Assembly: GCF_044704955.1 (NCBI RefSeq)
Contig: NC_091998.1
Span: forward strand, 12,338,001-12,402,000
Source: Pristiophorus japonicus
Taxonomy: Eukaryota
DNA length: 64,000 bases
Direction: 5' to 3'
A program made the position numbers and the translations under genes. How positions within the stretch are numbered: position 1 is the first letter of the stretch; each line of letters starts with the position of its first letter. Below, piece by piece: positions 3,001 through 41,100 of this stretch. The notes below the pieces were generated by a model, which made no database searches, had not been told where the DNA came from, and was given only the letters and a program-made list of their open reading frames with translations.

Positions 3001-4940
3001 GCAGTGACAGGATCGATCCAAGTTAGCATGGATTTATGAAAGGGAAATCCTGCTTGACAAATCATCTAGAATTTTTTTTGAGGATGTAACTGGTAGAGTG
3101 GACAAGGGAGAACACGGTGAATGTGGTGCACTTAGACTTTCAAAAGGCTTTTGACAAGATCCCACACAAAATATTGGCGTGCAAAATGAAAGCACACGTT
3201 ACTGGGGGTAATGTACTGACATGGATAGAGAACTGGTTGGCAGACAGGAAGCAGAGTCAGGATAAACAGGTCCTTTTCAGAATGGCAGGCAGTGACTAGT
3301 GGGGTGCCGCAGGGCTCAGTGCTGGGACCCCAGCTATTTACAATATACATTAATGATTTGGATGAGGGAATTGAGTGTAATATCTCCAAGTTTGCAGATG
3401 ACACTAAGCTTGGTGGCGGTGTGAGCTGTGAGGAGGATGCTAAAAGGCTGCAGGGTGACTTGGACAGGTTAGGTGAGTGGGCAAATGCATGGCAGATGCA
3501 GTATAAGGTGGATAAATGTGAGGTTATCCACTTTGGGGGCAAAAACACGAAGGCAGATTATCTGAATGATGGCAGATTAGGAAAAGGGGAGCTGGGTGTT
3601 ATGGTATATCAGTCACTGAAAATTGGCATGCAGGTACAGCAGGCGGTGAAGGCAGCATATGGTATATTGGCCTTCATAGCTAGGGGATTTGAGTATAGGA
3701 GCAGGGAGGTCTTACTGCACTTCTACAGGGCCTTAGTGAGGCCTCACCTGGAACTTGTGTTCAGTTTTGGTCTCCTAATCTAAGGAAGAACGTTCTTGCT
3801 ATTGAGGGAGTGCAGCGAAGGTTCACCAGACGGATTCCCAGGATGGCAGGACTGACATATGAGGAGGGACTGAATCGACTGGGCCTATATTCACTGGAGT
3901 TTAGAAGGATCAGAGGGGATCTCAAACATATAAAATTCAGATGGGACTGGACAGGTTAGATGCAGGAAGAATGTTCCCGATGTTGGGGAAGTCCAGAACC
4001 AGGGGACATAGTCTAAGGATAAGGGGTAAGCCATTTAGGACTGAGCTGAGGAGAAACTTCACTCAGTTGTTAACCTGTGGAATTCCCTACCGCAGAGTGT
4101 TGTTGATGGCAGCTCATTGGCTATATTCAAGAGGGAGTTAGATATGGTCCTTACGGCTAAAGGGATCAAGGGGTATGGAGAGAAAGCAGGAAAGGGAAAC
4201 TGAGGGTGAATGATCAGCCATGATCTTATTGAATGGTGGTGCAGGCTCGAAGAGCCGAATGGCCTACTCCTGCACCTATCTTCTATGTTTCTATGTTTAC
4301 AGAGCTGTAGTAATACCCTCCCTCCTATATGGCTCAGACGTGGACCATATACAGTAGGCACCTCAAATCGCTGGAAAAATACCAACGCTGTCTCCGCAAG
4401 ATCTTGCAAATCCTCTGGGAGGATAGACGCACCAACCACCAGTGCTCTCGATCAGGCCAACATCTCCAGCATCGAAGCACTGACCACACTCTACCAGCTC
4501 CGTTTGGCGGGCCACACTTTCTGCATGCCGGACAAGACTCCCAAAGCAAGCGCTCTACTTGGAACTCTGACACGGCAGACGATCCCCTGGTGGGCAGAGG
4601 AAATGTTTCAAGACACCCTCAAAGCCTCCTTGATAAAGTGCAACATCCCCACCGACATCTGGGAGTCCCTGGCCAAAGACTGCCCTATGTGGAGGAAGAG
4701 CATCCAGGAGGGCGCTGAGCACCTTGAGTTTCTTCACAGAAAGCATGCAGAAAACATGCGCAGGCAGCGGAAGGAACGTGCGGCAAACCGGACTCCCCAT
4801 CCACCCGTTCCTTCAACGACTCTGTCACAGGTGGGACAGAGACTAATTCCTGAATTGGACTGTACAGCCACATGAGAACGCACTTTTTATATATATATAT
4901 GTGGAAGCAAGTCTTCCTTGATTGAGGTACTGCCTATAAT
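1..4940 (+). mobile_element. RTE-clade LINE (degenerate, runs off window start), interrupted by CR1 at ~880-4298
   Basis: RT peptides such as LLNRLLPVAEELLAESQCG, QEKCREQHQPLYMAAFDLTKAFDT and TGVKQG. RTE 3' part resumes at ~4299 and ends ...ctgcctataatg. Lies in copy 1 intron 4. Confidence 0.9.
880..4298 (+). mobile_element. CR1 LINE with 5'UTR, ORF1 esterase remnant and disrupted ORF2
   Basis: SGNH-like ORF1 remnant (~1085-1330), APE endonuclease (GDFN), RT motifs ([14 protein letters not shown]), tail ...ttctatgtttctatg. Confidence 0.92.
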
Positions 4941-6210
4941 GTATTCTTCTCCCTTATTGCTAGCATAAAGGCCCAGGTTGTTATCGGTAAAGATTTAGTT
5001 TTAACAATTGCTTTTGTTTGCTAATCAAAAATCACATTGGTGAATATTTTCACTATATCATCATAACTGCACTTCCCAGGTAAACACCCACTAATCCACT
5101 AATTGATCCCCAATAATGGTTCTCACATGCAAGGCTGACGTACAGCACTGTTGTGATGTTTAGTGAAGATGGCGTTGTGTTTAAAAATGACAACCGCTTA
5201 AGACCACAACTCAGGTACTTTTAAACAGTCAGATCATCATACATTGGTTACAGCACAGAAGACGACTATTTGGCCCGTAGAGCCCATGCCAGCTCTCTGC
5301 AAGAGCACTTCAGCCCTGCAAATTATTTTCTGAGGTGTGTGTGCAACACCCTTTTGAAAGCAGTGACCGAGTCTGCCTCCACTATCTCTTCTGCCAGTGC
5401 ATTCCAAATACTAACCACTCGCTGTGTTAGAAAAAGTTTCTTATGCTGCCTTTGGTTATTTGACCAATCACCTTAAATCTTTGTCCTCTGGTTCTCAACC
5501 CTTCTGCCAATGGGGAACAGTTTCTCTATCTACTCTGTCCAGACCCATTTCTGTAGATTGGTAACTACTTCTGAATGCCTGGCACACACCCAGAGGAGCA
5601 GCCAGGTAATGAGAATTAAAGCCAGCAGAAACCAGATCTCTATTTCCTCCTCCTTTTTAATAAAAGAGATCATTTAGTTGAAGTGTGGCACCTCAAGTAC
5701 AACAGATGCAGCTTATCCAAAACTTGGGCAAACCTGAAAGGTCCCAAGGCATGGATATATTGCTCATCTACAGCTTAGAAACAACATTAGCCCAGCAAAG
5801 ACTGGTCATATTTTCAGTAAGTGTAATGAACAGATGATGCCGTTCAAAAATGTAGCAAATGTAGCTACGACTCAAAACTGAAAGTAACAATTTGATTTGC
5901 AGAACTATTCATATAGAAATAAACAGTTGCTTATATATGACACCTTGTCAGAAATGTCTCAAAAGCTATGACTTCGGCTTCGATATAATTTACTTGGGAT
6001 TCTCCAATGATATTTTATACAATGATATTTGATAATATTCTATCTCGCAGCCCTCATTTTTCACACCGCTTCCATCTGGTCCCCATGTCCCCGCTACCCA
6101 CACCGTCCTTCACCCCAACAAACTCAACATTCCCTTCCGCCTACCTCCTCCACTCTTCCCACCCCACCCCTGAAACACATCAATACAAATATGCCAAGCA
6201 TCCTACTTAC

Positions 6211-9036
6211 CAGGCTCTGTGTGCTTCAGTGTGAAATTCTCATCCTCAAACTTGGTCCCGTAGATGGACTTTCCACCCGTGCCATTGTGCTGTGTGAAGT
6301 CACCGCCCTGTACAATGGAAAGTTGAGCAGGTCATTGACCATTTACTGAAACAGGCACAGAGATATTCCCAAATATTCGCAAAATAAAGTTGCTCCTCAC
6401 CTGACACATGAAGTCAGGAATGATTCTGTGGAATGTGGAGCTCTTGTAACCAAAACCCTTCTCCCCGGTGCACAATGCACGGAAGTTTTCTGCAACAAAG
6501 CCATTCAGAGTAAGACCACCGATCTAAAAGACAGACTTTCTTCAACTCAACAGTTCGTTTATGGGACTTACCTGCAGTCTTTGGGACCACATCAGCCCTG
6601 AGCTGAAAGAGACAACAGTGCACAGCTTCAGTATATCGACCATGTACAATAATAAAACACTACAGATTCATATCATAGCCGTAATTACTGTTCAAACATT
6701 ATATTGAGAAGACTTGTAAAAGCTACATATCACGTACACATGAACAAGTTTTATACAGAGCAACGGTAACAATTGTAGCAACACTGCTGCTGCAATTATT
6801 TTACCACATAGCTGATCAATAAGCATTTAACAGTGATTCTTAAACGTGTGTGGGGAAATTCCTGTAATTCACAACATACTCCTGGGGTCCCTTACAAATG
6901 AGGGGAACTCTCATTTCACAAAGACAATGTCAGCGAGTCAATGGAAACCAGTGGCATCACTGCAGGACTTACTGGAAATCAAATTATTTTTTAAAGCTGT
7001 TAACACATTAGGGAAAGAGGGAGAAAAGTGCAAAGAAGCCAAAACACCTGCAATGGCTCTTGTTGCTACCTCATGAGTAGCAACCCAACTTCAGTGTGCC
7101 AGTGCAGCCTTCGGTCAAGGACCATAAACTCAGCACCAAGCTCATGGTCTACAGAGCAGTAGTGATACCCACCCTGCTACATGATAGAGACATGTTCTAT
7201 CTACTGCAAGCACCTCAAAGCACTGGGGAAAGTACGACCAACGCTGCCTCTGCAAGATCCTGCCAATGTTCTCGCTCAGGCCAACATCCCCAGCATCGAA
7301 GCATTGACCACGCTCGATTAGCTCCGATGGACGGGCCACATTGACCGCATGCCCGACACTAGACTCCCGAAACAAACGCTCTACTCAGAGCTCCGACACG
7401 GCAATCGAGGCCCAGGTGGGTAGAGGAAATGCTTCAAGAACACCCTCAAAGCCTCATTGAAAAAGTGCAATGACCCCCAACCGACATCTGGGAATCGCTG
7501 GCTCAAGGCCGCTCAAAGTAGAGAACCATCTGGGAAGACACCCAACACCGAGTCACAGAAACATAGAAAATAGGTGCAGGAGTAGGCCATTCAGCCCATC
7601 GAGCCTGCACCACCATTCAATGAGTTCATGGCTGAACATGCAACTTCAGTACCCCATTCTTGTTTTCTCGCCATACCCCTTGATCCCCCTAGTAGTAAGG
7701 ACTACATCTATAACTCCTCTTTGAATATATTTAGTGAATTGGCCTCAACAACTTTCTGTGGTAGAGAATTCCACAGGTTCACCACTCTCTGGGTGAAGAA
7801 GTTTCTCATCTCGGTCCTAAATGGCTTACCCCTTATCCTTAGCCTGTGACCCCTGGTTCTGGACTTCCAACATTGGGAACATTCTTCGTGCATCTAACCT
7901 GTCTGAAGCAGTCAGAATTTTAAACGTTTCGATGAGATCCCCTCTCATTCTACTGAACTCCAGTGAATACAAGCCCAGTTGATCCAGTCTTTCTTGATAT
8001 GTCAGTCCCGCCATCCTGGGAATCAGTCTGGTGAACCTTCGCTGCACTCCCTCAATAGCAAAAATGTCCTTCCTCAAGTTAGGAGACCAAAACTGTACAC
8101 AATACTCCAGGGTGTGGCCTCACCAAGGCCCTGTACAACTGTAGCAACACCTCCCTGCCCCTGTACTCAAATACCCTCGCTATGAAGGCTAACATGCCAT
8201 TTCCTTTCTTAACCGCCTGCTGTACCTGCATGCCAACCTTCAATGACTGATGTACCATGACACCCAGGTCTCTTTGCACCTCCCCTTTTCCTAATCTGTC
8301 ACCATTCAGATAATAGTCTGTCTCTCTGTTTTTACCACCAAAGTGGATAACCTCACATTTATCCACATTATACTTCATCTGTCATGCATTTGCCCACTCA
8401 CCTAACCTATCCAAGTCGCTCTGCAGCCTCATAGCATCCTCCTCGCAGCTCACACTGCCACCCGCAAATTTGGATACTACATTTAATCCCCTCGTCCAAA
8501 TCAGTAATGTACAGTGTAAACAGCTGTTCGTTGGGAGCAAGCGGAAGCCAAGCTCTAACAGCGGAAGGAGTGCACGACAACCCAAGCACCCCATCACCTG
8601 TGACAGACTGCAGGTCCCGCATCAGACACCTGAGAACTCATTAACATGGAAACAAGTCACCCTCGACTCCGAGGGACTGCCCAAGAATAGAATATAGCCA
8701 CACATGTACACAGGACTCCAAAGTGTGGTCTAGTATTGCACGCTTACGGTTAGTTTTTAAACCCAGTTTTGCAGCGACTGCACACATTCCAGAGGAGCCA
8801 CACCTTGCTGCTCTTGGCCCGCGCAGGCGCACTGGTCCGGGGGGAACAGCTCCCCCAGCGGCCGGTCTGTCTCGGCTCAGCCTAGGACCGCGCAGGCGCA
8901 CTGGTCCCGGGAACAGCTCCCCCAGCGGCCGGCGGCCCGCGCGCGGCAAGGCTTTCCTCACCGCCATCACGATCCGGCCCAGTCTTTTGCCGTTGATATC
9001 GATGTCCATGAAGACCCGGGGATTGTTGCCGGCCAT
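6211..9036 (-). CDS. Cyclophilin-type peptidyl-prolyl cis-trans isomerase, copy 1 (partial: exons 1-4; exons 5-6 expected left of the window)
   Basis: Exons complement(8962-9036, 6572-6602, 6401-6489, 6211-6307) = 75/31/89/97 nt, with canonical GT/AG splice sites. Translation [97 protein letters not shown]. Strong Kozak context (gcaccATGG). Intron 4 matches copy 2 down to ~4942, then is interrupted by RTE/CR1 to the window edge. PPIA- vs PPIF-orthology is unresolved. Confidence 0.93.
7090..8690 (+). mobile_element. 5'-truncated RTE in copy 1 intron 1 (orthologous to the one in copy 2), containing a minus-strand CR1 at ~7557-8527
   Basis: RTE C-terminal peptides; 5' junction identical to that at ~32210. 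Nested CR1 3' fragment. Confidence 0.85.
8820..8932. repeat. Same 67-bp unit (~1.7 copies) in copy 1 intron 1
   Basis: Matches the 33943-34256 unit. Confidence 0.85.
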
Positions 9037-9593: not shown

Positions 9594-10530
9594 TAGAAAC
9601 ATAGAAAATAGGAGTAGGCCATTTGGCCCTTCGAGCCTGCACCACCATTCAATAAGATCATGGCTGATCATTCCCTCAGTACCCCTTTCCTGCTTTCTCT
9701 CCATATCCCTTGATTCCTTTAGCCGTAAGGGCCATATCTAACTCCCTCTTGAATATATCCAGTGAACTGGCCTCAACAACTCTCTGCGCCAGGGAATTCC
9801 AGAGGTTAACAACTCTGAGTGAAGAAGTTTCTCCTCATCTCGGTCCTAAACGGCCTACCCCTTATCCTTAGGCTGTGTCCCCTGGTTCTGGACTTCCCCA
9901 ACATTGGGAACATTCTTCCTGCATCTAACCTGTCCAGTCCCGTCAGAATTTTATATGTTTCTATGAGATCCCCTCTCTTCCTTCTAAACTCCAGTGAATA
10001 TAAGCCCAGTCGCTCCAGTCTTATATATCAGCTGCCATCCCGGGAATCAGTCTGGTGAACCTTCGCTGCACTCTCTCAATAGCAAGAGTGTCCTTCCTCA
10101 GATTAGGAGACCAAAACTGTACACAATATTCAAAGTGTGGCCTCACCAAGGCCCTGTACAATTGCAGTAAGACCTTCCTGCTCCTATACTCAAATGCCCT
10201 AGCTATGAAGGCCAACATACCATTTGCCTTCTTCACCGCCTGCTGTACCTGCATGCTTTCAATGACTGCTGTACCATGACACCCAGGTCTCATTGCACCT
10301 CCCCTTTTCCTAATCTGCCGCCATTCAGATAATATTCTGCCTGTGTGTTTTTGCCACCAAAGTGGATAACCTCACATTTATCCACATTATACTGCATCTG
10401 CCACGCATTTGCCCACTCACCTAACCTGTCCAAGTCACCCTGCAGCCTTTTAGCGTCCTCCTCACAGCTCACACCGCCAGCCAGCTAAGTGTCATCTGCA
10501 AACTTGGAGATATTACATTCAATTCCCTCA
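9594..10530 (-). mobile_element. CR1 LINE 3' fragment
   Basis: RT C-terminus ([25 protein letters not shown]) and CR1 tail. Confidence 0.9.
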
Positions 10531-10625
10531 ACCACCTGCCTCATTGTGGATCCCCTGATCCCAACTGGCTGGGGTTTTATTGAGTCTTGTGAACATCACG
10601 TGACTGGCTAAGCCACTCACAACTC

Positions 10626-10946
10626 TTTTGGGGGGTGAACAAAATAAACATTAAATCAAGTGCCCCCCGATCTGGGGGACACTCCAAACACTTTTCACGT
10701 GCACTTTTTTTTTTTGTTTGTTTTTATGGTGATTTTTGTGGGGTTTTTTGGGCACTAAAATCATGATTTTTTCCAAGTACCCCCTATAAAAGGGGAGGGG
10801 CACACTAAAACCAGCATTTAAAATAAATTAGACTTTAAAACAAATAAAATCAAATTAAAATTTGGTTGCCGGGGGTGATGATGCACTCCAGTCCCTCCGG
10901 TGCCCACCTCTCGCGAAAGGCCGCGAGCGTACCGGTGGACACCGCG
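10626..10946 (-). mobile_element. Tx1-clade (L1 group) non-LTR retrotransposon, short 3' fragment
   Basis: ORF2 end AVSTGTLAAFRERWAPEGLECIITPGNQILI* plus 3'UTR; flanked by a 19-bp direct repeat. Confidence 0.85.
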
Positions 10947-10965
10947 GCTAAGCCACTCACAACTC

Positions 10966-12416
10966 TTTTAGAGGAGACAAATAAACAGTAGGTCAAGTGA
11001 CCCCCGATCTGGGGGACACTCCAAACATTTTTCAACTGCCCTTTTTTTAAAACTTTTTTTGGGGGGGTTTTTGTGATTTTTTGGGGCAATAAAATCATAA
11101 ATTTTACAAGTGCCCCCTATAAAAGGGGAGGGGGACATTAAAAACCCCGGCAATTAAAACAAATTAAACTTTAAACCAGATCAAATCAAATTAAAATTTG
11201 GTTGCCGGGCGTGATGATGCACTCCAGTCCCTCCGGCGCCCACCTCTCGCGGAAGGCCGCGAGCGTACCGGTGGACACCGCGTGCTCCATCTCTAGGGAC
11301 ACCCTGGCCCGGATATAGGCCCGGAAGAGAGGCAGGCAGTCAGGCTGAACGACCCCCTCGACCGCCCGCTGCCTGGACCGGCTGATGGCACCCTTGGCCG
11401 TGCCCAGGAGCAGTCCTACGAGGAGGCCCTCGGACCTACCCGCTCCCCTCCGCACAGGGTGCCTAAAGATCAGGAGTGTGGGACTGAAGTGCAACCAGAA
11501 TTTCAGGAGCAGCCCCTTTAAATATTGGAACAGGGGCTGCAACCTCACACATTCAGTAAAAACATGGAACACGGACTCCTCCAGACCGCAGAAATTGCAG
11601 GCGGCTTGGGAGCACATGAACCGGCTTAAAAATTAGTTGCACAGGACTGCTCCGTGCACCACCCTCCAGGCCAAGTCCCCGATAAATAATGGGAGGACTC
11701 CCGCGTAATGTGCACTCCATCGGGGACCCCCGCCTCCTCCGGACGGCACTATGGTACGCCATGGCGTGTCCGGAAGGCAGACGAGGATGGCAAGGTTGAG
11801 AGTGTGCAGGAGCAGCCCGTACAGGAAACCCCTCCGCGCAGAACTGAAAGGCACGGAGGGGATTTCCCCGAGGCGGCTCAAGTTGTGAAGCGCCGGCTCC
11901 CAAGGGAGGTTCTGGGGTTTGGCGCTGATGAGGAATTCCGTCCGGACGGGGGTCAGTTCGGTCGGGATCTCCCCACGTGCTTGAGCCTCCTCGACGCACC
12001 TAATGGAGTCGGGGCCCAGTGCTGTTTTTAGCGACTCGATGGCATCGGCCGAGCGGCGGACGTCGGCCGAATTTAGGCGCCGCGCCAGCATGTCTGCCGC
12101 CATCCAGCCCGCTCCTCCGCCATCGAGCAGGTCCCTGACCCTGGTCACCTCACCAGCCACAGCCCTCTCGTCCGACTGCCACCTAAAACCTCGGAAGTGG
12201 AGGTACGGATTCCTGAGCAGCGGCTCCTGCAGGACAGCCGCCACTCCAGCCGGTGGAGAGCTGCGCTTGGTGGAGACTTTGTTCCAGACCCTGGTGAGTT
12301 CCTTGTAAAAGACAGGCAGCTCCTGGACGGCGGTCCTGACGCCCCCCAAGCTCACAAACAGGAGCTGCGTGTCGTAGTTGAGGTCGTGCTGCTGGCGGAA
12401 GAAATGCGTCGCCAGC
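10966..12416 (-). mobile_element. Tx1-clade non-LTR retrotransposon, 5'-truncated
   Basis: ORF2 C-terminus with LPVFYKEL..VW, DLAWRVVHGA and zf-RVT CCHC motif CNFCGLEESVFHVFTEC; one premature stop; 19-bp TSDs. Confidence 0.88.
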
Positions 12417-12435
12417 GCTAAGCCACTCGCAACTC

Positions 12436-13898
12436 TTTTAGGGAGTACAAAACAAACATTAGATCAAGTGCCCCCCAATCTGGGGGACACTCCAGACACT
12501 TATACCTGCCCTCTTTTTTTTTTGTTATTTTTGACTGTTTTTTGGGGGTTTTTTGTGATTTTTTTTTTGGGCAATAAAATCATAAATTTTACAAGTGCCC
12601 CCGATAAAAGGGGAGGGGGACACTAAAAACCCCGGCAATTAAAACAAATTAAACTTTAAAACATAAAATCAAATTAAAATTTGGTTGCCAGTCGTGATGA
12701 TGCACTCCAGTCCCTCCGGCGCCCATCTCTCGCGGAAGGCCACGAGCGTACCGGTGGACACCGCGTGCTCCATCTCTAGGGACACCCTGGCCCGGATGTA
12801 GGCTCGGAAGAGAGGCAGGCAGTCAGTCTGAACGACCCTCTCGACCATCCGCTGCCTGGACCGGCTGATGGCACCCTTGGCCGTGCCCAGGAGCAGTCTA
12901 CGAGGAGGCCCTCGGACCTACTCGCTCCCCTCCGCACAGGGTGCCCAAAGATCAGGAGTGTGGGACTGAAGTGCAACCAGAATTTCAGGAACAGCCCCTT
13001 TAAATATTGGAACAGGGGCTGCAACCTCGCACACTCCATAAAAACATGGAACATGGACTCCTCCAGACCGCAGAAATTGCAGGCGGCCTGGGAGCCCGTG
13101 AACCGACTTAAAAATGTATTGCACGGGACTGCTCCGTGCACCACCCTCCAGGCCAAGTCCCCGATGAATAGTGGGAGAACTCCCGCGTAGAGTGCCCTCC
13201 ATCGGGGACTCCCGCCTCCTCCGGACGGCAAGATGGTACACCATGGCGTGTCCGGACGGCAGGCGAGGATGGCAAAGTTGAGAGTGTGCAGAAGCAGCCC
13301 GTACAGGAAACCCCTCCGCGCAGAACTGAAAGGCATGGAGGGGATTTCCCCGAGGCGGCTCAAGTTGTGAGGCGCCGGCTCCCGAGGGAGGTTCCGGGGT
13401 TTGGCGCCGATAGGAATTCCGTCCGGGCGGGGGTCAGTTCGGTCGGGATCGCCCCACATGCTTGAGCCTCCTCGATGCACCTAACTGAGTCAGGGCCCAG
13501 TGCTGTTTTTAGCGACTCGATAGCGTCGGCCGCGCGCCTGACGTCGGCCGAATTTAGGCGCCGCGCCAGCGTGTCTGGCGCCATCCAGCCCGCTCCTCCG
13601 CCATCGAGCAGGTCCCTGACCCTGGTCACCTCACCAGCCACAGCCCTCTCGTCCGACTGCCACCTAAAACCTCGGTCGTGGAGGTACGGATTTCCGAGCA
13701 GCAGCTTCTGCAGGACAGCCGCCACTCCAGCCGGTGGAGAGCTGCGCTTGGTGGAGACTTTGTTCCAGACCCTGGTGAGTTCCTTGTAAAAGACAGGCAG
13801 CTCCTGGACGGCGGTCCTGACGCCCCCCTAAGCTCACAAACAGGAGCTGCGTGTCGTAGTTGAGGCCGTGCTGCTGGCGGAAGAAATACGTCGCCAGC
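12436..13898 (-). mobile_element. Tx1-clade non-LTR retrotransposon, 5'-truncated
   Basis: Same family and same 5' end as 10966-12416; frameshifted; 19-bp TSDs. Confidence 0.88.
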
Positions 13899-14017
13899 GC
13901 TAAGCCACTCACAACTCAATAGCTCTACAAACAGGTGCATACATTACAGCTTCCAGTAGCAGTATACAGAAGCAGGCTTTTCCGAGAGGAACATTTGTCA
14001 TTAATAACACGCACCTC

Positions 14018-14135
14018 CAACGTTCCCCCGAATCGATCGCGAGATCCTGCGCAGGCCGCTAGAAGAGATACCGCGCATACGCGGCCGCTGCGTATTTAAA
14101 GGGACCGCGCACAAAAAAAATTAGAAGGAACTTTG
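14018..14135. mobile_element. Short hAT-like MITE
   Basis: Imperfect TIRs caacgttccc / ggaactttg around a GC-rich core; partly matching 8-bp flanks. Confidence 0.45.
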
Positions 14136-14704
14136 CTTGCCTCTCTCATCTGTCGCTCTGTACCTGTGTGATCTGGCAGCCCCCAGTCTGCTTGTTTTTC
14201 TGAGGTTCAAATGTTTTATTTATTTTCTTAAAGCAGCGTTCAGAACTGAAAAACGCTGCAGAGAATCAGTCTTCAATATTACTGTTTGTGCACCCAGGTT
14301 AGCAACTCGTGCTGCTCAGCATTCCGATTGTTTGTAATCTGGACAAGTTAAATTGAAGGTAGCGATATTTCAGTCTCAGCTTAATATAAACTAAGAAAAG
14401 ATTTAACTTGAATCATAGAATTTATAGCACGGAAGCTAGCTGTTCGTCCCAACTAGTCTTAGCCAGCGTATATGCTCCACACCAGCCTCCTCCCACCTCT
14501 CTTCATCTCATCCTATTAATATATCCTTCTATTCCTTTCTCCCTCGTGTGCTTATCCAGCTTCCTCTTAAATGCATCTATGCTAGTCACCTCAACCACTC
14601 CCTGTGGTAGTGAGTACCACATTCTCACCATCCTCTGGGTAAAAAGGTTTATCCTGAATTCCCTATTTACTTGGTAGTGATAATCTTATATTTGTGGACC
14701 CTAG

Positions 14705-38124: not shown

Positions 38125-41100
38125 GCCGATCATGGCTGATTTGATCCGATCCTCAACTCTACTTCCCCACCCGCTCTCCATAACCCTTAACTCCCTTATC
38201 GTTTAAAAATCTGTCTATCTCCGCCTTAAATGCATTCAATAACCCAGCCTCTATAACTCTGAGGTTGAGAATTCCAAAGATTCACGACCCTCTGAGAGAA
38301 GAAATTTCTCCTCATTTTCATTTTGAATGGGCGATCCCTTATTCTTAAACTATGCCCCCTAGTTCCCTATTCCCCCTCTCTGCATCTACCCTGTCAAGCC
38401 CCCTCAGAATCTTATACATTTCAATAAGATCACCTCTCAGTCTGCTAAACCCCAATGAGTATAGGCCCAACCTGCTCAATCTTCATATGACAACCCCTTC
38501 ATCTCAGGAATCAACCTCGTGAACCTTCTCTGAACTGCCTCCAATGTAAGTATATCTTTCCTTAAATAAGAAAACCAAAACTGTATGCAGTACTCCAGAT
38601 GTGGTTTTACCAATGCCTTGTACAGTTGTAGCAGGACTTTCTTACTTTTATACTCAATCCCCTTTACAATAAAGACCAACATTCCATTTGCGTTCCTAAT
38701 TACTTGCTGTACCTGCATGCTAACTTTTTGTGTTTCATGTACAAGGACCCCCAGGTCTATCTGTACCACAGCATTTTGTAATCTCTCCCTATTTAAATAA
38801 TAATTTACTTTTTTATTTTTCCTACCAAAATGGATAACCTCACATTTTCCCACATTATACTCCATCTGCCAAATTTTTGTCAAGTCATTTAGCCTGTCTA
38901 TATTCCTTTGCAGATTCTTTGCTTTCCTCCTCAAAATTTGCTTTTCCACCTATCAGCAGCAAACTTGGCTACATTACACTCGGTGCCTTCATCCAAGTCA
39001 TTAATATAAATTGGTAATAGTTGAGGCCCCAGCACTGATTCCTGTGGCACCCCACTAGTTAGTTTGCCAACCTGAAAATGACCCCGACTCTTTGCTTTCT
39101 GTTAGTTAGCCAATCCTCTATCCACTTTAATATATTACCTCCAACCCCGAGAGCTCTTATCTTGTGCAGTAACCTTCTCTGTGGCTCGTTATCGAATGCT
39201 TTCTGGAAATCCAAATACACATCTACTGGTTCCCCTTCATCTATCCTGCTTACTACATCCACAAAAAGAATTTCAGTAAGTTTGTCAAACATTATTTCTC
39301 TTTCATAAACTCTGCTCGACTGCATTTTGATTTTCTGCTTCCTTAATGATGGACTCCAATATTTTCCCAATGACAGATGTTAGGCTAACTAGTATATAGT
39401 TTTCTGCTTTCTGTCTCCCTCCTTTCTTAAATACGGGCGTTACATTTGCGGTTTTCCAGTCCACTGGAACCTCTTCAGAATCCAGGGAATTCTGGTAGCT
39501 TATAACCAATGCATACACTATTCCTGCAACCACCTTTTTAAGAACCTAGGATGCAGGCCATCAGGTCCAGGGAACTTGTCCACCCTTAATCCCATTAGTT
39601 TGCCTCGTACTTTTTCTCCAGTGAAAGAGATTATTTTAAGTCCACCCTCCCCCCGCCCCTTAATTATTGATTATTGGGATGCTTTTAGTGTCTTCTACTG
39701 TGAAGACGATACAAAATATTTGCTCAAAGTCTCTGCCATTTCCCTGTTTCCCATTATTAATTCCCCAGGCTCATCCCCTAAGGGACCAATGTTTACTTTA
39801 GCTACTTGCTTCTTTTTTATATACCTGTAGAAGCTCTGACTGTTTTTTATATTTCTTATAATTTTCTCTCATAAGCTATTTTCTCTCCCTTTATAAATTT
39901 ATTTTAGTTGTCCTTTGCTGATTTCTAAAAATTTCCCAATCCACTGGTCTTTAGCTACTCTTCGCAACATTGTATGCCTTTGTTTTCAATTTGATACCAT
40001 CCTTTACTTCCTCAGTTAGCCACCGTTGGTTCATCCTTCTCTTAGATTCTTTCATTCTCACTGGAATATCTCTTTGCTGAGAAGTTATGAAATATTTTCC
40101 TAAATGTTTGCCACTGTTTTTCTACACTCTTACTCTTTAATATATTTTCCTAGCTTTCTCATCCTCAAACTGAATTTCAAATTCTAACATGCTATGATCA
40201 CTCTTCCCAAAAGGATATTTCACTATGAGATCATTAATTAATCCAGACTTGTTACACATTACCAGATTTAAAATAATCTGTTTCCTGGTTAGTTCCACAC
40301 AATTTGTTCCAAGAAATCATCCCGCATACACTCTATGAACTCTTCCTCAAGGCTACCTTTGCCAATTTGATTTGTCCACAATCAATATGAAGATTAAAAT
40401 CGCCCATAGAAACATAGAAAATAGGTGCATGAGTAGGCCATTCAGCCCTTCTAGCCTGCACCGCCATTCAATGAGTTCATGGCTGAACATGCAACTTCAG
40501 TACCCCATTCCTGCTTTCTCACCATGCCCCTTGATCCCCCGAGTAGTAAGGACTTCATCTAACTCCCTTTTGAATATATTTAGTGAATTGGCCTCAACTA
40601 CTTTCTGTGGTAGAGAATTCCACAGGTTCACCACTCTCTGGGTGAAGAAGTTTCTCCTCATCTCGGTCCTAAATGGCTTACCCCTTATCCTTAGACTGTG
40701 ACCCCTGGTTCTGGACTTCCCCAACATTGGGAACATTCTTCCTGCATCTAACCTGTCTAAACCCGTCAGAATTTTAAACGTTTCTATGAGGTCCCCTTTC
40801 ATTCTTCTGAACTTCAGTGAATACAAGCCCAGTTGATCCAGTCTTTCTTGATAGGTCAGTCCCACCATCCCGGGAATCAGTCTGTTGAATCTTCGCTGCA
40901 CTCCCTCAATAGCAAGAATGTCCTTCCTCAAGTTAGGAGACCAAAACTGTACATAATACTCCAGGTGTGGCCTCACCAAGGCCCTGTACAACTGTAGTAA
41001 CACCTCCCTGCCCCTGTACTCAAATCCCCTCGCTATGAAGGCCAAAATGCCATTTGCTTTCTTAACCGCCTGCTGTACCTGCATGCCAACCTTCAATGAC

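Follow-up and report, generated by a model that had tools for sequence, protein, structure and literature searches.

Stacked insertions of a Tx1 LINE in a Gypsy LTR of Pristiophorus japonicus and the probable copying of a resident's 5' end

Results and discussion

Three Tx1 copies stacked in one LTR

When a 64,000-nucleotide stretch of the Pristiophorus japonicus genome (NC_091998.1, positions 12,338,001 to 12,402,000; hereafter the window) was analyzed, three 5'-truncated long interspersed elements (LINEs) assigned to the Tx1 clade, E1, E2 and E3, were found stacked in a truncated long terminal repeat (LTR) of a Gypsy retrotransposon. We read them as separate insertions of a LINE that prefers a TTG(T) motif in this LTR, with E3 likely having copied the 5' break point of E2, and give this reading a probability of about 70 %. 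The family, its host and its site preference were observed directly in genomic copies. In addition, neighbouring copies derive from different source lineages, share their 5' ends and carry the younger tails upstream.

A 19-mer occurs four times in the window, once with one mismatch (Table 1), exactly as the initial annotation had reported. In shuffled sequences the mean number of copies was 0.02 and no shuffle reached 4. The three inserts between the 19-mers were confirmed as 5'-truncated and of one orientation, each closed by a run of four A, and they consist of the 3' part of Tx1 open reading frame 2 (ORF2) and the 3' untranslated region. E2 and E3 are 94 % identical and have a common start relative to a 7,175-bp intact copy, with different tails; the start of E1 is distinct.

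Excision of the three inserts restores positions 1-144 of a 274-bp LTR, in agreement with the LTR-like sequence that had been predicted. This LTR has a 16-nt deletion (positions 18-33) just upstream of the usual Tx1 site, and its 3' half (positions 145-274) is absent, a LINE fragment abutting the break. A public contig spans the E3 5' junction, the target site duplication (TSD), the LTR start and unique flank (13871-14182; one letter differs), and it may derive from the same sample as the assembly. None of the short-read contigs is long enough to cross the whole array.

The tails of E2 and E3 each belong to a multicopy lineage, with 52 and 67 exact genomic matches, respectively. E3 differs by 4.5-5.0 % from three other loci versus 5.5 % from E2, and it falls in a clade with 99/96 support that excludes E2. 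The stack therefore arose through separate insertions. The independence which the initial annotation had proposed from the truncation point of E1 extends even to E2 and E3, which have multicopy tails and do not group as sisters.

The Tx1 family and its termini

In Pfam, the broken Tx1 frames of the window matched nothing except zf-RVT, and this below the threshold. A longer genomic copy of the family contains reverse transcriptase (RT) and partial endonuclease frames, and its best named relative was the ORF2 of Xenopus Tx1L (YTX2_XENLA; 49 % identity over 99 % of a 640-aa query). Intact copies (about 7.2 kb) carry a 703-aa ORF1 upstream of a 1,306-aa ORF2. The latter contains the domains Exo_endo_phos, RVT_1 and zf-RVT, and ORF1 has a zf-CCHC match of 19 bits, slightly below the curated cut-off. 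On these sequence features the family is classified as a LINE of the Tx1 clade, with an apurinic/apyrimidinic-type (APE) endonuclease and an RT nearest Tx1L, two ORFs and a CCHC knuckle in ORF1. An Rfam search with four loci (three full Tx1 copies and one Gypsy element) gave no match.

The family shows the hallmarks of target-primed reverse transcription (TPRT), namely intact 3' ends, 5' truncations and TSDs. A TSD of 14-17 nt, counted from TTG, was resolved by script in 6 of 8 single copies (in or outside the LTR) and in 4 of 16 further loci. Among the 119 copies of the E2 and E3 lineages, 107 have GAG(TT) after the A run, whatever the flank (hand count). Since this motif is kept at copies everywhere, the first three or more bases of the 19-mer are also the element terminus, and the target-derived duplication is best read as its last 16 nt. 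The initial annotation had named a 19-mer that is part of the element's own end as evidence against its reading; this applies to those first bases and not to the remaining 16 nt.

The host is a Gypsy LTR

The flank of the stack is a dispersed repeat (1,727 candidates, of which 40 were scored). The LTR of 274 bp begins with TG, ends with CA and has a 10-bp terminal inverted repeat, and several solo copies are flanked by 5-6-bp TSDs. A sequence of 18 nt resembling a primer binding site (PBS), which we take to match tRNA-Ser, follows the LTR 3' end in about one fifth of the 100 matches listed, of 359. Of ten PBS-bearing loci, four (L090, L091, L092 and L098; L-numbers denote individual genomic loci) have a second LTR start after a purine tract (polypurine tract, PPT), and they have a common interior. 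RT is followed by integrase (rve) in this interior. The closest solved RT is that of Ty3 (E = 3e-22), and the foamy virus RT gave E = 1e-16.

With its direct repeats, PBS, PPT, short TSDs and RT before integrase, the host is a Ty3/Gypsy LTR retrotransposon, and the paired LTRs, PBS and PPT at these loci bear out the multicopy LTR of the initial annotation. The 10-bp inverted repeat had also suggested a miniature inverted-repeat element or another DNA transposon, which was ruled out by the PBS, the PPT and the paired LTRs.

When ten purines before an LTR start were searched for, 28 copies were found, with no common interior except for one segmental repeat; the actual PPT does not consist of ten purines alone. 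A young tandem segmental repeat (L079-L083, G000 C17:111.08-111.18 Mb) is made up of five near-identical units, about 21.5 kb each, and every unit contains an LTR start. At L019 and L020, two partial LTR copies lie in inverted orientation within 1.5 kb.

Target site preference

The main Tx1 site is LTR position 35, which is 16 nt upstream of the site used in the window. It was counted with two exact patterns, filled and empty, which miss LTR variants, and gave 1,696 filled junctions versus 533 empty sites (about three quarters occupied). Another LTR variant and internal junctions account for a further 3,606 matches. When 29 other LTR copies were chosen by their 3' part, 15 carried Tx1 at the main site (by eye). 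Such very high occupancy would also fit Tx1 copies that hitchhiked inside the LTR during Gypsy replication. However, filled LTRs have many different truncation points and tails, and the two LTRs of one element are not alike: L090 and L092 each have one LTR with an empty site, and the tails are different in L098. Hitchhiking is excluded for the elements examined and we give it next to no credence for the family.

The site in the window was found to be minor, with 22 matches at 21 loci with a Tx1-type tail. In most of these loci the upstream junction is at the main site, or the LTR has its two TTGT motifs collapsed. The initial annotation had proposed a strictly sequence-specific parasite of the 19-bp site, which accords with the four 19-mers of the window and with the 21 loci. 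Against 1,696 junctions at the main site, and with about two thirds of the E2 and E3 lineages outside the LTR, this model is refuted in its strict form. In the window, the 16-nt deletion likely removed the context of the main site and diverted insertion to the next TTGT.

Preference for the LTR is partial. T-type (older) tails are at the LTR main site in 69 of the 100 matches listed, of 3,887 (hand count). For the tail types of E2 and E3, all 52 + 67 matches were placed by hand, two of them by their upstream flanks; of these 119, the main site holds 34 and other parts of the LTR hold 5 (39/119). The off-LTR copies have in common just a TTG(T) motif. These tabulated flanks support the earlier claim of an LTR target as far as strong enrichment goes, and do not support strict specificity; in addition, the youngest lineage inserts elsewhere (see below).

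A LINE family has been regarded as target-specific when one flank type is found in more than 20 % of its copies (Kojima, PMC4494074). The hand counts of 69/100, 39/119 and, for a LINE site described below, 44/55 all exceed this value. Under the strict Tx1L/R1-type definition, with nearly all copies at one site, the E2 and E3 lineages would not be included.

Some flanks of off-LTR insertions recur, 5 times in the case of one motif and 2-3 times in others, which suggests secondary target repeats, and two or three of these insertions adjoin tRNA-like sequence. In the first 55 Mb of G000 C1, the LTR site holds every one of the first 31 T-type tails listed, and those further along the contig are mixed, possibly due to regional differences in LTR density.

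Shared 5' ends of neighbouring copies

Among 50 loci chosen by junction pattern, a recurring start was observed in 9 of 13 resolvable arrays. Six arrays with a unit cut by the locus edge or interrupted were left out; one of them was later resolved and its start was not shared (9/14). Between loci, starts coincide in 0.9 % of comparisons overall and in 25 of 1,936 (1.3 %) among loci with the same TSD. The junctions of E2 and E3 have 2-nt microhomology with the TSD end, and a few starts do recur between loci, e.g. near reference positions 3,641 and 3,669. This is what would be seen if the same TSD end met the same microhomology in each new complementary DNA (cDNA), the resident copy not being contacted. 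The 25/1,936 comparisons largely refute this explanation. Moreover, microhomology cannot transmit private alleles or the junction-specific extra bases that were passed on in L146, L160, L164 and L168, and we consider it very unlikely.

Thirty same-start pairs were then compared, which had been chosen by eye for their common starts, several from one array. As a rule, the two neighbours carry different alleles at sites where each allele is frequent elsewhere. At nt 12-50, locus-private alleles common to both neighbours reached 14 per kb (6 arrays), compared with 0.8-1.1 in controls. Further in, they fell to 7 per kb at nt 50-100 and about 3 at nt 100-400, with 5.4 beyond. In 12 replicate pairs the values along the copy were 9, 28, 25, 2 and 0 per kb.

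The length of the shared tract ranges from undetectable to about 1,200 nt. L164 has 11 private shared alleles in the first 165 nt and zero after. In L104 private alleles are in common to about nt 1,190, and no difference at common sites occurs before nt 1,124. A stretch of flank of about 290 bp is duplicated between same-start copies in L040/L115, and short-long dimers are repeated in L106, L160 and L166. In the case of L098, the first 11 nt or so of the newcomer are those of the resident's start, after which a 7-nt match leads over to another position.

Order of copies within arrays

G-type tails are younger than T-type tails (15 versus 33 private changes per kb; nearest same-type copy at 4.0 versus 8.8 %). 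In a hand count of the 100 matches listed, with 6 unclear ones set aside, G-type tails were found at 22 of 42 internal versus 7 of 52 terminal junctions (p = 9e-5). Twelve arrays have G upstream of T and one has the opposite order; L002, with two tails at different LTR sites, was excluded from this comparison.

A possible route of insertion

The endonuclease nick, priming by the RNA end and the second nick that yields the TSD are standard TPRT. Judging from genomic products, the first nick would be made by the APE endonuclease in the bottom strand, at TTG(T); the end of the RNA, an A run and GAGUUG, would pair with the nicked strand and prime reverse transcription. If the site is empty, a second nick, some 14-17 nt from the first, would create a new 5' junction along with a TSD restoring the site. 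If a copy is already present, nicking would take place in the upstream TSD, and the new cDNA could anneal to the homologous resident copy just downstream. It would then be extended along the resident, back through the resident's 5' junction and TSD, and joined. The product would be a chimera with the 5' end of the resident and the 3' part of the newcomer. Since such chimeras would form at the upstream TSD, arrays should grow mostly at their 5' side, and E3 was likely added after E2. In this combination, TPRT, entry at the 5' TSD and cDNA annealing would produce the same starts, the inherited private alleles, the duplicated spacers and the polarity in one event. In SART1 and R1Bm, the RNA end is known to pair with the target (PMC7265360).

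The same final chimera could be obtained by plain tandem duplication between TSDs, followed by replacement of the 3' end, either target-primed or through gene conversion by a younger cDNA. Some pairs are indeed nearer to each other than to any other locus (L103, 4.2 %; L104, 3.8 %; L113, 3.4 %), and the three full-length units of the array ARR1 are nearly identical. However, if replacement were primed at a downstream TSD, terminal and internal copies should be renewed equally often, and terminal tails are old: T-type tails were found in 89 of 100 listed main-site junctions and in 45 of 52 terminal junctions, whereas half of the internal tails are young. Duplication with replacement also needs two events per copy added, and we consider it improbable, though clearly less so than the microhomology explanation.

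Several observations weigh against copying from the resident. The 30 pairs were picked by eye for shared starts, with several from the same array in some cases. The signal in the replicate pairs comes almost entirely from two arrays, L146 and L164. The private alleles beyond 400 nt exceed the control, an excess driven by few pairs, and plain duplication would give the same. With 2-3 nt of difference in ORF2, the units of ARR1 might be simple duplicates. Polarity measured by private-mutation count was not significant, the upstream copy being younger in 17 of 30 pairs and the reverse in 13. In addition, the order in L146 is reversed, and L110 and L168 hold short copies between same-start copies; thus, internal TSDs seem to be used too.

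In the window itself, E2 and E3 share 1 private allele in 1,237 columns, which is no more than background, so that copying there rests on the family-wide pattern. The only hint from this pair is the distribution of differences, with 4 in the first 190 nt versus 67 in the next 1,047 (a post-hoc split), and 1 of the 4 early differences is a common-allele difference.

Youngest lineage and a probable change of target

A set of 55 endonuclease-bearing copies was obtained from 120 listed matches ranked by similarity to one endonuclease, which favours intact young copies. Among these, 44 are at one 15-nt site in an APE/RT LINE (42 by script and 2 by inspection). The remaining copies are at the homologous site of a related LINE (5, by eye), in the LTR (1), ending in an A run (1) or without the ORF end (4). 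The flanks of the LINE-site copies match the LINE family that is abundant in the window. The target LINE encodes APE and RT, and its named matches come from rays, sharks and birds; none is labelled CR1, and we infer that it is CR1-like.

Among 15 intact copies compared, the median ORF2 divergence was 1.1 %. When the tree was drawn with midpoint rooting, the LINE-site copies formed a 100/99 clade with short branches and the T-type LTR copies had the longest branches. The LINE-site copies end in GAGTTT, in agreement with the new site. At their other end, the first bases can be aligned to the LTR TSD found in front of the head in older LTR-hosted copies (L241-L243); the youngest lineage retains a 14-mer resembling the LTR target at its head.

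The endonuclease of this lineage is 96 % identical to that of an LTR-hosted copy and its hairpin loop is unchanged. No residue cleanly separates LINE-site from LTR-hosted endonucleases, of which only two were available for the LTR; the best candidate is A150V, except that A is found in L100. Target choice is commonly attributed to the endonuclease (PMC4494074), and its hairpin loop contributes to site choice in L1 and Tx1L (PMC1950540). The nearly unchanged endonuclease is compatible with, though no proof of, a major part of the RNA end in site choice. As a tentative proposal, to which we give rather less than even odds, a few target-derived bases at the RNA 3' end, more than the endonuclease, might choose the site. 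The family would then have walked from the Gypsy LTR to the CR1-like LINE with a near-unchanged endonuclease, keeping the old target as a fossil head, and invasion of the resident by cDNA would build polar arrays that log the order of source lineages.

Copies of the youngest lineage (L181-L240; G000 C1:10634000-10663999 and C1:345046500-345066499) are intact, about 1 % diverged and mostly in head-to-tail full-length arrays. Six full-length copies (L193, L202, L205, L211, L218 and L219) have a common 5' junction with about 30 bp of the LINE target missing. This loss resembles the target deletion of melanogaster-type R1 and suggests a source carrying upstream target sequence. Empty near-matches to the LINE target were found at 38734 and 52981 of the window, inside its own LINE copies.

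Other features of the window

Table 1 Features of the Tx1 stack and its surroundings in the window
Feature	Position	Strand	Basis
Gypsy LTR 5' part (LTR positions 1-66, minus 16 nt at 18-33)	13899..13948	-	blastn vs intact 274-bp copy
Unused main Tx1 target (LTR positions 35-48), upstream context gone, one substitution	13917..13930	-	
19-mer copy 1 (native LTR positions 48-66); last 16 nt, 13899-13914, TSD proper	13899..13917	-	
E3, 5'-truncated Tx1 of 1,463 bp with its start at base 5,707; its tail type has 67 exact matches in the genome	12436..13898	-	
19-mer copy 2, element-terminal GAG and 16-nt TSD, one substitution	12417..12435	-	
E2, 5'-truncated Tx1, 1,451 bp, start base of E3; other tail type (52 exact genomic matches)	10966..12416	-	
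19-mer copy 3	10947..10965	-	
E1, 321-bp Tx1 3' end, own start (base 6,841), third tail type	10626..10946	-	
19-mer copy 4, runs on into remaining LTR	10607..10625	-	
LTR positions 48-144, first AATAAA included	10529..10625	-	
Fragment of the abundant APE/RT LINE family (putatively CR1-like), abuts truncated LTR	10200..10528	-	

Three paralogous first exons of a cyclophilin-like gene, each followed by GT, are on the minus strand at 9036, 34359 and 51306. Their best PDB match was cyclophilin 40, and 38-40-bp CCAAT/GC-box repeats lie upstream of at least two of them. The exon copies are part of a tandem segmental duplication with a spacing of about 25-27 kb, and the Tx1 stack is about 1.5 kb upstream of the copy at 9036. 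No tRNA was found when the window was searched with ARAGORN.

Comparison with known systems

Tx1 families preferring LTR retrotransposons, Tx1-8_Crp and Tx1-4_AMi of crocodilians, have been published (Kojima 2015, PMC4494074). The text consulted on these families names neither the LTR element nor the position within it, and mentions neither shared truncation points nor a switch to a LINE target. Tx1L of Xenopus laevis is similar in being the closest named protein, in its ORF1 zinc knuckle, in its ORF2 order (endonuclease, RT, zf) and in its mobile-element target. However, the target of Tx1L is the DNA transposon Tx1D, and nicks by its endonuclease fall almost exclusively at the expected site (PMC1950540), whereas the shark family has a looser preference and other targets.

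The R1 arrays in Drosophila 28S genes (Stage and Eickbush 2009, PMC2718515) are also alike, with an APE LINE whose 14-bp TSD regenerates the site. New R1 copies enter the TSD at the 5' end of the resident, and melanogaster-type R1 forms its 5' junctions by annealing carried target sequence (PMC2718515). R1 differs in its clade and its rDNA target, and inheritance of the resident's truncation point is not among the features described for it in the text consulted (PMC2718515). LTR preference and stacking at a regenerated TSD, as in R1, are thus already in print, and LTR preference alone is an ordinary new example.

In the case of L1 elements, nascent cDNA can leave its RNA, pair with nearby homologous DNA and duplicate a segment, a rare outcome with 22 instances among several thousand insertions (10.1101/2024.08.27.596794). 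In the shark Tx1 family, unlike L1, annealing of cDNA to homologous DNA appears to be routine, because the site preference places a homologous copy beside the nick. In PMC1920257, PMC5105311 and 10.1101/2024.12.14.628481 no closer system was found. Our full-text literature search, with most subscription papers as well as Repbase and Dfam outside its scope, revealed neither a description of inherited truncation points nor one of a CR1-like LINE as a Tx1 target. Relative to the literature searched, what would be new is the routine inheritance of the resident's 5' junction and the switch from LTR to LINE target with a fossil head.

The joining of the LINE 5' end is the least understood step of TPRT, and thousands of natural arrays in one genome offer a direct read-out of integration completed through homology. 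The switch of target inside one family, with young intact copies about 1 % apart and a 96 %-identical endonuclease, is a test case for site choice in APE elements, which bears on retrotransposon-based gene insertion. Distinct truncations have been taken as a sign of double insertion (McGurk and Barbash, 10.1101/158386); in the shark arrays, identical truncation points in tandem LINEs do not prove duplication.

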